NCBI GenBank assembly: GCA_012295275.1
Contig: CM022668.1
Location: forward strand, 10,354,001 to 10,418,000
Reading direction: 5' to 3'
Origin: Chrysomallon squamiferum
Taxonomy: Eukaryota > Animalia > Mollusca
Length of the DNA: 64,000 bases
Position 1 is the stretch's first letter. The number at the start of each line of letters is the position of its first letter. Both the position numbers and the translations under genes were made by a program. Below are positions 1,628 through 49,205 of this stretch, one piece after another. The notes below the pieces were generated by a model. It saw only the letters and a program-made list of their open reading frames with translations, was not told the origin of the DNA and made no database searches.

Positions 1628-1702
1628 CTTTTCCTGATACATGTTCAATCTTGAAATAAACGCACAAGGCAGAAAGAAAAAAAAAATCCAGCACTTCAAC
1701 AT
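1628..1702 (-). pseudogene. G0: signal-peptide exon 1 of the next array member, which continues off the left edge; 1-nt frameshift
   Basis: ATG TTG AAG TGC TGG ... LSALCVYFKIEHVSGK G|gtgag, homologous to exon 1 of the other copies. It is 75 nt versus 76 nt in G4, one base short in the A10 run at 1677-1686 (real lesion or homopolymer error). The intron at 1-300 resembles the G4 intron at ~48550-48800. Confidence 0.7.
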
Positions 1703-2015
1703 TTTGTCTGTTCTGAAACAACGAAATCTGTGCACTAAAAAAAAAAAAAAAAAAAAAAAAAAATCCGTTCTTTATCTCTCACTACAGAGTTATGTGAACT
1801 AACAACAAATCATAAAACACACGTCCTTCAACGGGTAGTTATAAATACACTTACTAGAGGTGTGTTCTGAACATGTATTCGAGTGTTTCTTTTAAATGTG
1901 TCAAGCTGTAATCATAAGTGTAAAATAAATGTTATCAAACAAGTTAACCAGGAAGATGTTTTTATCTTTATGCAGGAGCGTATCCTGGATTCTGAAGTGG
2001 GTACCAAATGTCCCC

Positions 2016-2112
2016 CCTCTCTCTCTCTCTCTCTCTCTCTCTCTCTCTCTCTCTCTCTCTCTCTCTCTCTCTCTCTCTCTCTCTCTTTATATATATATAT
2101 ATATATATATAT
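2016..2112. repeat. (CT)n plus (AT)n microsatellite, representative of many
   Basis: Other tracts: (GA)n ~2887-2956, 14941-15036, 24567-24723, 26232-26402, 32773-32918, 40415-40499; (CT)n ~39369-39648; (GATA/GGAT)n ~3850-3985 and ~41414-41512. Confidence 0.97.
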
Positions 2113-44100: not shown

Positions 44101-47100
44101 AATTTTCCTGAAAACTTAGTCTAGCAACAATGTAATTTATACAGATGAGTTGTTATTCTTCAGTAACTGATATTAATTCACCAGACCTGTAATAAAAGAA
44201 TAGTTAAAACATGACTCACGTTCATTACAACTTGGGTTTTTCCATCCTGGTTGACAACCATTTTGACATTTTCCATTGTGAACATCACACTTAGAGTTGT
44301 TATCTGTACAATGTCTTTCACCACACTTGTACTCACAGTTAGGTCCATACGTGTCATGTCGACATTCTGCATAGAAAAGGAATCGTTTAAAATAAGTTTT
44401 ATTGTTATTGATGTGTTGACGTACTAGTTTTGTATCTCAACATGTGCTAGCCTGTTGTTGTTATTTGACGGTCCGTCTATTTATATCTCTACCTGCCTAC
44501 TTACTTATATTTATATCTCTACCTGCCTACTTAGCTATCTGTTTGTCTGTGTGTCTGTCAGTCTGTCTTCGCAGGTTTCTCCTCATCAGAGGGACAAATA
44601 ATAAAACGTTTTTGAAAATATTTACAGTTTTTTTTCTCATCCACCACCCGCAATAAACATAAATCGTTGTGGCCAGGCGTTGCTATAGCAATCACCCAGG
44701 CTTTCTCCAACAAAACAATTTTAAACATATTGAGATCACTGGTGGATGTAAATAAGACATAATTGTCACGTCATAAAACACATATAAAGCATATTTCACA
44801 AAATACTGCATTTGAAACCCAAATAGAGCTCCGATTTTTTACCTCAAACATCCCATAAGATGCGGTGTTTATGAAACATACGTATGCTCGGACTGATGTT
44901 GAATGATTAAATTATTAAAATGATGTACCACATGGTTTGATGGGAAAACGTTTGGCGACTGCAGTTCGCGGTCGCTTGTGGTTCGACAAAACACAACATT
45001 GTCAGCAAACACCGTGCAGTGCAACAAATGAGCCAAACAATCTTTAACAAACATCGTATAAAGCTGCCGTAGAATAACAAAATTATCTTGTGGTGATAAT
45101 TACTGTTAATATTATGACACTTACTGACTGTACAGTCTGGTTTTTCCCAACCTGCAAGGCAGCCATCTTTACATATTCCATGTTCCCTGTCACAGTCCTG
45201 TCTACCTTTACAGTGTCTGTCAACACAAGACATGTTACAGTTGTATCCATACGTGCCATTACAATCTGAAAAAACACAAAATACATAAAACAAGACAAGA
45301 ACGAAACATCACTTGTTAAATATATACAATTTATTTTATAACTAATATGATTCTGTGTGTGGAAATATGTGAAAGTGTGTTTGAAGTATGTATGCTGAAT
45401 TTAGGACAAAAGATTATTTACAATATAGAAAAAAATATCTGTTTTCATGATTTGATTATTTAGACGAGCCAAGTCATTCTTGAAATTTTCACAAGAAATA
45501 TAAACAAACACTATCATCGCTACTTGAATATCAGTATGTGTAAACTATTTAAAGCAATATTACAATAAATGTAAAACTTTTTTAAAAGTTTTTTTCCCTT
45601 CAGATCACAGTTTTCGGAAATGAATAAACCGTCAATTTGACGATAATCCGAACATTATATTTGAGCATACACACGCACACACACACACACACACGCACAC
45701 ACATACCAGAGACTAATAATTACCCACTAGTTCTCTACTTATTATGAACTGAACAGGTTTAAAAAATAGACAGAGTTGTGGTCTTGATACGAACAATAAA
45801 AATCGTATTTAAAATTAAAGTCGGTGATTCTCATTCACTAGAAAATACGTACCTTCTTTAGCTGCATTTTACAACTAGAAAAATGATCCTTCTAAATAAG
45901 TTCCTCAAATATCTTGTGTACAGTCACATTTGTACCTTTAACGATCTTAGATAAACTTGTACAGCTTACATTAACTGAGTTTAAAGTTATATCACGATGT
46001 TTCTCATTAACTAGTAAATACGTACTGGTTGTACAGTCTGTAGACTAGTATCCTCTTTGACAACCATCAACACAAGTTCCATTCACATGATTACAAGTAA
46101 AATCTCCAAAAGATTTACGTTCTTTACACAGTTTCAAACAGTTTTGTCCTTGTTGATGAGTGGAGTAAAATGTTTTTTTTTTTTTTTTTTTATAAAATAA
46201 AATTGAGGAGATAAAAGGTAATATGTAAAATATATAAGTAAAATGGACACTTACTGACTGATTGTCCCATCTTTTATAATTAAATACGTTACATTACTGT
46301 TTGCATTTACAATATATGACGTCACCCGAACTGTTTGAATCGTGTTACATGTTGGTAAAAATGGAAACATTTTAATTTCCAATTTCAGGGAAAAAGTTGT
46401 TCGATTCTGAAGATGACAAGAACTACAAGTATACACACGTATATTACTGCATTTGACCGGTGTGTTCTGATACAATTCTTTATATGAATAACGTACATAC
46501 AACACAGTTATTTTCTTGTTTCTGTTTTCATTATTAGCAGAGTATTTCGGCGTCGTCCGCAGTGACGATGATGTTGATGATGATGACGATGATAGCCTTG
46601 ATGATTGCTATAGTCTTAGGATTCAAAAGTTCAAAAATCTGACAGCAGACAATGAAACACTGAAATATAGAAACAAACCTAATTTTCCAAACACTTGTAC
46701 TTCACAGAAATCCATTGCTGTGTCACCACTGTTATTTGTTGACTGGTAAAGTGTGACGTATCTCGCTGTTTTATCACATGTTATCTGTTTTATGATTGGA
46801 TCAGTTGACTTCACTGTATAACACAAACAACCATTATTCGGTATTCCACTTTCACATGCGTAAATCTTCACACCGTTCATTCGAACTTCTGTAAAGTAAT
46901 GAAGAATGAGCAGGAAACGTCAAAAGGTTACAATAAATAACAAAACCATTTTCATTATATATATATATATATATATATATATATATATATAAATGTATAA
47001 GAATTTGCATCACCCTAAGAATAATGTGTAAACTGTAAACATTAGTCTATCACTGAGGATGCTAACATGAAAATACTTTATAGCTTTTAAAATCAATGAT

Positions 47101-49205
47101 TATATATTCTCCAAATTCTTTCACTCATATTATATATTGTAAACGCAATAAAATAAGCATGCAGATACAAACTTACAAATTTACATATTGAGATTCAGTT
47201 AAGCGCCAGAAAATGACGTAAATATCTACTTATTCTTTCCAAATATTTGTTTGTGTAGATTTGTATATATGGGTGTATATGTTACTTTAATTTACAACGA
47301 TGAGTTCATATAATGTTCAGAATTTGCCTCTGTTTGTTTACAATGAATGTTTAATGACGCCCAAGCATGAAACTCAGATCGGCTATTGGGATTCAGAGAG
47401 AGTGTGGTTTGTTTAAATTACTGTTTATTACTGTAAGGTTTTCAAAACTTTACGTTTCATTGATAAATTAACAATCCCTCTGCATTAATGTACAACTGTG
47501 TGAGTGTCTGGTTGTGTTTTTGAATATATGTGATGTCTCAGTGTATAAGTAAACTTACTATCATAATGGAAGTGAACAGTTATATTTTGTATGTAGTATT
47601 CTGTTCCAAGATCCACCTGCCACCAAGTGTAGGGTTCTCCAGTACTTGTAAGTATACAATATTTCCCATTCCTCCCTTGTGACAGATTACTATCTACAGC
47701 CAGAGAAGAGTTGTGATATTCTTTACTATAATACGAACTCTGTTTGGTTGTTTTTTCAAGAGCAACATTTCCTGAAACGTCTGTTAAAATAAATAAAAAT
47801 AAACACACGAAACAAATACATAATTAAAAATAAATAGAAATAATGATATAACGTCTCATTCTGATTTTGTGGAAATCAGGTCGAAAACAAATCTGTATAA
47901 GTTAAAAACAAATTATACAAACACACAGACAAACAAACTTTTACACAAATACGTACATATGCATAAACATATATGTAATAATATTAGCAAATACGTGCAG
48001 ACACACAAAAAATATCTGAAATATTTTTTACCAGTTGTACATTTATAGTCCTGACCATCCGTTTATGCAAGAATTATGGCCGCCATTACATCCTGTGACG
48101 TCATCAGAATTATTAATATTACAGTCTCACGTTTGGTTACAGTTCAGTCCATAGGTCCCTGACATACATTTACCTAGTAATGGAGTGCAGCAGCAACACC
48201 AACGACAACAACAATCAGAATATTATACTGCGTAATGGAATTTTCTCGTCGTTGCTACTACTGCAATTCTGCAGCTTGACCAATAATACTACTACTTCTT
48301 CTTTTACTACTTCTAATATTCTTGTAATACTATTGCTACAGCTACTAGTATTACTATTTCTACGGCTGCTACTACTGTACTACGACTACAACTACTACTG
48401 TGTCCACTACTACTGCTGGTACTGTTGCTGTTATTATTATCAAACATTACTACTGCTACCACCGCTAAAGCAGATACATTTCAACAGCTTCTGCTGGAAT
48501 TACTACAACTATTATTACTACTACAACTACCACGATTATTACTACTATTATTATTGTTAAAATTACTGTCACTCGAAGATGATGAGGTATATTAACGAAA
48601 CCTAATATATTAAAAAAACTATTTGTACCAGATAAGACACTTTAAAGTTGAGATTCTTAAACCCCATGATAAAATACGATGGAATCCTAGTTTTATAAAC
48701 CAATTCGCACTTACTTTGTATTACTAAACATTTCTGAGTCTTATTCGTAAACCACTTCAAATAATGAACTTACAACAAGATAAGAGAGAGTTGTTCAACG
48801 TGTATTTTTATTTTATTTATTTACTTAGTTGTAACTATATATGTATATTTTTAAATATAATGTATATAATTAAATATATACATACCTATATCTATATATC
48901 TATGTGTCTGGTATATAATGTATGTAAGTGTGTGCATGTATAAATGCACACACATATATAAAATTACCTGACACGTATTCAGTCTTGAAGTAAATGCATA
49001 ACACAAAAAAAACAAGTAAATCCAACCAGTAGATCAAAAAAAGAAGAAAACCAACAACAAACATAACAAAACAAAAATCTTGATATAATTATTTTTAAAA
49101 TAAATAAAAGCATAAATAAAACAACTAACCTTTGCCTGATACATATTCAAAGTTAATATAAACGCCCAACGCAGAAATAAAGAAGAAAATCCAAAACTTT
49201 AACAT
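41126..49205 (-). pseudogene. G4: A-type F-type lectin/EGF receptor gene with lesions and a short tail
   Basis: Exons: signal peptide 49205-49130; EGF 48173-48032 (TGA at 48129-48127 and a +1 insertion); lectin 47771-47559 and 46888-46688 (or to 46679); truncated EGF ~46148-46026 (TAG at 46047-46045); EGF 45265-45125, 44366-44220, 43721-43578, 43135-42992; TM 42124-42028; tail 41276-41126. Confidence 0.82.
48968..49026 (-). pseudogene. Degenerate second copy of the signal-peptide exon in G4 intron 1
   Basis: WIYL...LCIYFKTEYVSG|gtaatt with no ATG and a 1-nt deletion. Confidence 0.65.

Follow-up and report, generated by a model that had tools for sequence, protein, structure and literature searches.

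A tandem array of lectin-fold, EGF-stalk receptors with ITAM-type tails in Chrysomallon squamiferum: a candidate recognition repertoire

A 64,000-nucleotide stretch of the Chrysomallon squamiferum genome (assembly GCA_012295275.1, contig CM022668.1, positions 10,354,001 to 10,418,000 of the forward strand) carries a tandem array of genes and gene remnants for single-pass receptors that combine a lectin-fold head, a stalk of EGF-like repeats and, in two units, a tail ending in an ITAM (immunoreceptor tyrosine-based activation motif). We refer to the whole stretch as the window and number positions from its first letter. On balance we lean toward the view that the array encodes activating recognition receptors coupled to Syk/Shark kinases and evolving by birth-and-death, with phosphatase-tailed siblings acting as a brake; the steps from ligand to outcome are ones that we infer.

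Self-comparison and exon mapping across the 64-kb window find six gene units (A–F) and one deletion scar, all on the minus strand, with a common exon plan of signal peptide, EGF, a lectin-fold head over two exons, EGF stalk, transmembrane (TM) segment and tail. In six-frame translation, repeated Cys-rich and lectin-like exons are confined to the minus strand from 49.2 to 1.6 kb, within AT-rich DNA with microsatellites and a single 200-N gap at 9306–9505. Every ectodomain exon is symmetric in phase 1 and bounded by AG/GT. The array is not a chance arrangement, because Pfam F5/8 type C matches fall on all four first lectin exons and a full-length homolog is 51% identical over 727 aa. A first-pass annotation of the window had placed at least six paralogs and a deletion scar between 49205 and 1628; the six units and the scar bear this out, and both boundaries are exact, since unit A has its ATG at 49205 and the signal exon of unit F ends at 1628. 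Its single exon plan stands as a plan common to the units, but the full set of modules is visible only in units A, B, and C, and one frame is open: unit B alone is complete and intact, splicing to an open 733-aa frame. Unit C has a stop, unit A is broken, unit F has a 1-nt frameshift in a T run and is cut by the window end, and units D and E adjoin the gap. D and E are different genes because each has its own second lectin exon. The four tails seen include two with an in-frame ITAM-type motif (B and C); A and E have a frameshift in common and a tail that ends after ∼50 residues without an ITAM.

The head appears to be of the F-type-lectin fold. In each of the four copies the first lectin exon matches Pfam F5/8 type C (E 1e-5 to 8e-7), a profile of these exons retrieves FBP32 (3e-9), streptococcal fucolectin modules, and eel agglutinin from the PDB, and the ESM Atlas places the head exon in F5/8-type clusters. 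The second lectin exon alone has no Pfam or PDB match, and among C-terminal halves of metagenome loci (35 of 44 loci taken, 28 long enough) two of 28 beat the best shuffle when compared with it. It aligns in mollusc homologs and, because direct searches are near-blank, its placement rests on those homologs and on the fold. The fold itself is predicted from an AlphaFold model of homolog P0105 (pLDDT 86.6; head 54.7% identical to that of B), whose best PDB match is eel fucolectin 1k12 (E 2.4e-10, TM-score 0.76) and whose top eight matches are all F-type modules. F-type lectins are characterized by the cation motif h2DGx and a His-Arg-Arg fucose triad (PMC5712786, cited here, like all papers given by PMC number below, from part of its text). 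In the window, the cation motif has DG in B, C, and D and DS in A, the terminal Cys-Glu is invariant in all four heads, and the four structural Cys are kept. The fucose motif H...RXDX4(R/K) is incomplete: both Arg are kept in B, C, and D and the Asp in C and A only. Because Leu replaces the triad His in each of the four heads, the ligand is probably not free fucose bound in the canonical way. Abalone retain this His in 25 of 33 heads, Gigantopelta in 1 of 15. The F-type-lectin head proposed in the first-pass annotation is upheld in its fold but weakened by the missing fucose-binding His; the window heads are F-type by fold and at best putative fucose lectins. The head of unit A is divergent, ∼50% identical to those of B, C, and D, which are 76–85% identical to one another.

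A profile of 11 stalk exons collected 431 relatives, of which the best 120 listed are nearly all molluscan and include 51 with a protein tyrosine phosphatase (PTP) domain by Pfam; a head is present in 87 of 125 proteins examined for it. The closest relatives listed are from Gigantopelta aegis, among them XP_041374072, which aligns to B with 51% identity across 727 aa that extend into the tail. RefSeq names this family "MEGF10-like" or "draper-like," as had been anticipated of automatic pipelines. In a tree built from 51 gastropod heads, which excluded bivalve and other rows as well as one isoform and one partial head, window and Gigantopelta heads form one clade (100/99) and B, C, and D their own (100/100), so the two expansions are separate. 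G. aegis lives at vents and harbors endosymbionts. It accounts for 28 of the best 120 relatives, 16 of them on one 42.25-Mb contig, its clade with the window has in common a head without the triad His, and the RNA run with a spliced contig (below) is labelled metatranscriptomic. These observations are consistent with an alternative in which the array is devoted to symbionts, its heads recognizing the surface of a bacterium that the host carries and the relative weight of ITAM and phosphatase forms determining whether that bacterium is taken up, tolerated, or digested. We consider it improbable, however, as similar expansions occur in abalone, oysters, and freshwater snails. In other molluscs the EGF stalk of the array is also joined to tyrosine-kinase C-termini (P0104, P0111, P0112, and P0118) or to a seven-TM domain, PF00002 (P0013, P0095, and P0099). 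Because the stalk is found with ITAM, PTP, kinase, and seven-TM C-termini, the ectodomain is a module used on at least four signalling ends.

The coupling to Syk/Shark kinases that we favor draws on the tyrosine tail. Tails of B and C end in E-YxxL-x9-YxxI and have four YxN motifs, and neither contains NPxY or an immunoreceptor tyrosine-based inhibition motif (ITIM). Scored against the consensus Yxx(L/I)-x6-9(12)-Yxx(L/I) with a preceding acidic residue (PMC9546547; PMC6994640), an ITAM is present in B and C (spacer 9) and absent from A and E; the ITAM tail ascribed earlier to the family hence holds for B and C but not for the frameshifted tails of A and E. Shuffled tails of B and C yield the motif in 107 and 81 of 10000 cases (∼1%). 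Among the 120 listed relatives, 20 of 42 short-tailed ones (those without PTP, kinase, or GPCR domains) have the consensus, and 19 of these have it in their final 45 residues; shuffles (n=1000) average 0.12 such tails and never exceed 2. The tail of B had no match at E<=0.001, either in longer proteins (44 candidates) or in 1.84 billion representatives, the first lectin exon of B likewise had none (8 candidates), and the ESM Atlas places the tail in unnamed clusters only, with low recognition. The tail nevertheless aligns to 11 of the 120 proteins found through EGF exons at E<1, down to 2e-9, so the blank tail and first-lectin-exon searches reflect a limit of sensitivity.

Draper and Megf10 use an ITAM with Shark/Syk in corpse clearance (PMC8092387), and the array could likewise encode a Draper/SCARF-like scavenger of dead or damaged self, or an adhesion or developmental receptor, with a head that binds protein, lipid, or self glycan and an expansion not driven by microbes. 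Loss of the triad His from all four window heads and 14 of 15 Gigantopelta heads is compatible with such a role, as is a loop dN/dS (ratio of nonsynonymous to synonymous substitution rates) nowhere above 1. But the many lineage-specific, decaying copies, whose loops on the ligand face vary, are better explained by a target that has to be chased than by an unchanging self ligand, and we judge this alternative unlikely. Draper, CED-1, and MEGF10 resemble the array as EGF-repeat single-pass receptors with an ITAM-type tail, but they have EMI and NPxY and no tandem repertoire (PMC8092387), whereas the array has an F-type-fold head. With no EMI domain, no NPxY in B or C, and an N-terminus of signal, EGF, and lectin, the array is not a Draper ortholog.

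A brake on these candidate activating receptors is suggested by phosphatase-tailed siblings in related genomes, which the first-pass annotation had overlooked. In seven pairs from Gigantopelta, abalone, and oyster, ITAM- and PTP-tailed relatives have ectodomains 58–80% identical joined to unrelated TM and cytoplasmic parts (pairs were picked as nearest neighbors, 10 were examined, and all are predicted proteins). Examples are P0011/P0021 (72% over 416 aa) and P0051/P0070 (69% over 181) in G. aegis, P0039/P0026 in H. asinina (65%, heads 83%), P0012/P0044 in C. virginica (72%, second heads 98%), and P0058/P0033 across abalone species (80%). The ITAM forms are not PTP models cut short, because no ITAM occurs in the initial 200 cytoplasmic residues of the PTP forms. 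On the 51-head tree, tail type requires eight changes, five of them forced by strong branches, compared with a shuffled mean of 12.4. We tentatively suggest, as a possibility somewhat short of an even chance, an unrecognized paired-receptor system in molluscs in which F-type-lectin/EGF ectodomains have been repeatedly swapped between ITAM-tailed activators and receptor tyrosine phosphatases that oppose them.

Spliced transcripts, to which the first-pass annotation had looked for a check, are found for B-type stalk exons. Part of B is present in nine sequencing runs of one organism. Contigs of run X9 (RNA on record) and run X8 (guessed DNA by type, yet covering exons only) join 31675 to 31288 over a GT-AG intron, skipping 386 nt (region 30900–32040); runs X1 and X5, which span introns, do not show it. 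A loose end of the contigs is the start of the last stalk exon of B (26 of 26 letters in both X9 and X8), where A and E differ at 2 and 1 letters, and the other loose end in X8 is the end of the preceding exon of B (30 of 30 letters). The joint and loose ends match neighboring exons of B, so splicing extends over four B-type stalk exons, as seen in runs that come from two studies, and the spliced contigs carry several variants. In DNA runs, depth over exons is several times that over introns, which is not a measure of copy number. Long minus-strand open reading frames at 29.3–30.9 kb were rejected as coding; they are a 33-bp tandem repeat that the spliced contigs skip. This repeat (29420–30848) fills part of the intron before the last stalk exon of B with 43 copies, 95% alike, and gives open frames of 513–515 aa on the minus strand.

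The mechanism that we propose is conditional at each step. The head would bind a ligand on the surface of microbes, of symbionts, or of altered self, and the variable stalk would set its reach, with phase-1 exons allowing in-frame gain, loss, or skipping of EGF units. Upon clustering of receptors, a Src-family kinase would phosphorylate the tail, a Syk/Shark kinase would dock on the tandem YxxL/YxxI, and Grb2-type adaptors on the YxN motifs, with phagocytosis or haemocyte activation as the predicted outcome. Phosphatase-tailed siblings with near-identical ectodomains would oppose the signal, and the short-tailed copies A and E are possible decoys or dying genes. Unequal crossing-over and conversion may homogenize stalks while the heads of old lineages persist. 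In oyster haemocytes, the Ig receptor CgIgR recruits CgSyk through an ITAM (PMC6994640).

Patterns of divergence in the window suggest turnover by birth-and-death, a claim of the first-pass annotation that is sustained by broken copies, the scar, the variable stalk, and lineage-specific clades on the head tree. At the scar (25200–26480, minus strand), a whole gene body has been deleted and a promoter-like stretch is fused, near 25347, to the last third of a tail exon. Between A and B, dS is 1.8 in the head (near saturation) and 0.10 in the stalk; these old heads on little-diverged stalks are a mosaic formed by conversion or exon exchange. Among B, C, and D, dN/dS is 0.62–0.78 in heads and 0.12–0.30 in shared EGF exons (selection rows with the out-of-frame signal exon of A were excluded). 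Amino-acid changes concentrate in loops around the cleft (19 of 37 loop sites vs. 22 of 97 others, p 0.003; loop boundaries were drawn with the alignment already seen). Positive selection is not supported, as loop dS is raised together with dN, a pattern that fits framework conversion or old allelic loops equally.

The same decay could mean that the array is mostly a graveyard, one gene with neutral duplicates and pseudogenes, its count inflated by an alternative haplotype past the gap (E and F). A, C, F, and the scar are damaged, and E begins at the 200-N gap and is 92.7% identical to the A region over 7434 columns, with substitutions of 3.1% outside exons and 3.8% within them. However, past the signal exon of F the DNA departs from the first intron of B and matches that of A, and E–F, which may be either a paralog pair or a divergent haplotype, is therefore not collinear with A–B. 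Stalk exons are under purifying selection (dN/dS 0.12–0.47 by pair), the B, C, and D heads are no more than 76–85% identical, and several variants are spliced. Taken with these points, the graveyard is a very improbable account.

Several observations weigh against activating receptors held in check by phosphatases. Only one of six units is intact. The contrast in dN/dS between head and stalk is significant in one of three pairs (p 0.018, 0.086, and 0.13), and dN/dS is below 1 in heads (0.62–0.78) and in loops (0.48–0.64) alike. Splice evidence is limited to four stalk exons, the contig of X9 departs from B in 6 of its 286 letters and may stem from another copy or allele, and the TM exon of B has a GC donor in a weak context, the only odd splice site in the unit. 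The 20 ITAM tails do not count as separate cases, since they comprise 11 Gigantopelta paralogs, 6 abalone and 2 oyster proteins, and 1 Draper-like protein of an insect, and freshwater-snail relatives with a head (P0085 and P0103) have short, Tyr-free tails. The pairing evidence comes from predicted proteins of other species; no PTP exon lies within the 64-kb window, and on the tree the clade that unites window and Gigantopelta heads includes no complete head with a PTP tail. An immune or self/nonself repertoire, as first suggested for this array, is in keeping with the domain plan, splicing, and birth-and-death, but is weakened by the lost His, dN/dS below 1, the single intact copy, and the fact that Biomphalaria clusters of this lectin-EGF architecture were put forward earlier as immune candidates (PMC13712769; PMC12297450), and the immune role itself is one that we infer.

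Comparison with known systems separates what is new here from what is not. In the schistosome-resistance locus of B. glabrata, clustered genes encode a signal peptide, fucolectin, EGF, and TM with either a small tail (1B) or a phosphatase tail (1C) (PMC13712769), and SudRes1 of B. sudanica is a paralogous cluster with an MEGF stalk and a galactose-binding head, linked to schistosome resistance (PMC12297450). The array has the features that define scavenger class F-like 1B, namely a signal peptide, fucolectin-like head, MEGF10/SREC-type stalk, one TM, and a small noncatalytic tail, and within the window it also has the tandem clustering with fragments and copy variation. Like the array, the B. 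glabrata 1B/1C genes are clustered and single-pass, with a galactose-binding/fucolectin signature, an EGF stalk of MEGF10/SREC type, and fragments; they vary in presence/absence between haplotypes, and 1C adds phosphatase domains (PMC13712769). The 1B tail is described there as small, with no signatures that could be identified (PMC13712769), whereas the array tail has a conserved ITAM consensus, and the array head lacks the fucose His and is preceded by an EGF. SudRes1 resembles the array in its MEGF stalk, galactose-binding head, and loss of EGF units between paralogs, but its described members carry tandem PTP domains and array genes have no catalytic domain (PMC12297450). The word "ITAM" occurs zero times in the main texts of these two papers (supplements lay outside the scope), and we found no paper on ITAMs in the lectin-EGF family in a literature search that was thin on subscription journals. 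The family is thus not undescribed, as the first-pass annotation had allowed: its architecture and clustering are known from Biomphalaria, and what appears to be new is the tail with an ITAM, the head that lacks the His, and the candidate pairing of ITAM and PTP forms.

Other systems share parts of the design. G. aegis XP_041374072, XP_041374466, and XP_041349419 follow the plan of B end to end (44–51% identity) with a terminal YxxL-x9-YxxI, but carry automatic names only, and the B, C, and D expansion is separate from theirs. F-type lectins such as eel AAA (1k12), MsaFBP32, and oyster bindins share with the array head the fold, h2DGx, terminal Cys-Glu, four Cys, and variable cleft loops; the array differs in the change of the triad His to Leu and in being membrane-bound with a signalling tail (PMC5712786). 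Hydractinia Alr is likewise a cluster of ITAM receptors with many pseudogenes, but it is built of Ig domains and has ITIM tails as counterweight, where the lectin-EGF array would have receptor phosphatases (PMC9546547). Oyster CgIgR provides ITAM-Syk signalling in a mollusc, but with Ig rather than lectin-EGF domains (PMC6994640). No homology of the array to Alr or CgIgR is claimed.

All units lie on the minus strand, and signal peptides were judged by eye and by alignment to homologs. Unit B (39070–27093) has 14 exons: signal peptide (39001–39070), N-terminal EGF (37410–37550), a 134-aa F-type-fold head (35701–37208; exons 37208–37002 and 35898–35701), a stalk of eight EGF-like repeats with eight Cys each, TM (27972–28071), and tail. 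The first four stalk exons (35602–35474, 35172–35029, 34303–34160, and 33318–33178) lie within 28970–35602 together with the last four (32376–32230, 31820–31677, 31290–31147, and 29113–28970), which are those spliced in contigs. The tail exon (27093–27441) encodes the 115-aa tail with the four YxN motifs and terminal E-YxxL-x9-YxxI. The GC donor of this TM exon (27972) has GT as its counterpart in unit C; if the intron that follows it in B were kept, a receptor without an ITAM tail would result.

Unit A (49205–41126) begins with a 76-nt signal-peptide exon (49130–49205), followed by a broken first EGF exon (48032–48173; TGA at a Cys codon, 142 nt and so out of frame), a head (46679–47771; exons 47771–47559 and 46888–46679), and a stalk (42992–46148) made up of a partial exon with TAG (46148–46026) and four others (45265–45125, 44366–44220, 43721–43578, and 43135–42992). 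Its TM and tail region (40980–42124) has a TM exon at 42124–42028 and a tail exon from 41276 with a frameshift stop near 41126, and its ITAM-like remnant is out of frame with the second Tyr changed to Phe. The first intron of A also holds, at ∼48970–48995, a second signal-exon 3' end and donor remnant. Unit C (15534–23504) has signal, EGF, head (22208–22002 and 21297–21100), a stalk of five exons with a TGA in the first near 20500 and the third duplicated, TM (16504–16408), and ITAM tail (15882–15534); its last stalk intron contains a scrambled piece of EGF exon (17540–17600). Unit D (9506–14304) is an open 5' half with signal, EGF, head (11341–11135 and 10522–10325), and stalk exons up to the gap. 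A GC-richer insertion (11750–12900; 0.40) that carries a 24-bp repeat sits in its second intron; B and C lack this insertion, which is possibly a transposon. Unit E (3410–9305, the unit being called at 9305–3563) is an A-like 3' half with the head end, five stalk exons, TM (4632–4536), and a frameshifted short tail from 3713. Of unit F, the signal exon is seen (1628–1702; 75 nt vs. 76 in A), and the remainder lies beyond the window; a decayed open reading frame on the minus strand in its first intron (620–1230) resembles what we take to be a Tc1/mariner transposase fragment.

Upstream of A, window positions 50184–50935 match DNA downstream of tail exons (23942–25112), and another unit or remnant may once have ended there. 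Positions 51000–64000 are degenerate tandem repeats of 1.5–4.7 kb (55402–59330 is 95% identical to 60010–64000) with no protein or Rfam match. Short conserved blocks with AG/GT ends occur within them, 27 nt and phase-1-like at ∼55257 and 53314 and 64 nt in four copies, and are perhaps mini-exons of another gene array.

Clusters of lectin-EGF genes are leading candidates for parasite resistance in snails, and the Biomphalaria papers leave open how their short-tailed members signal. A conserved ITAM, together with ectodomains held in common with phosphatase receptors, suggests a testable answer, activation through Src and Syk/Shark against sibling phosphatases. The array also displays turnover in place, with stops, frameshifted tails, a fused scar, and old heads on homogenized stalks. 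If the paired system is real, it would resemble vertebrate paired receptors made of other parts, and would give a signalling mechanism to the MEGF/galactose-binding clusters of schistosome resistance and perhaps to symbiont tolerance in vent snails.

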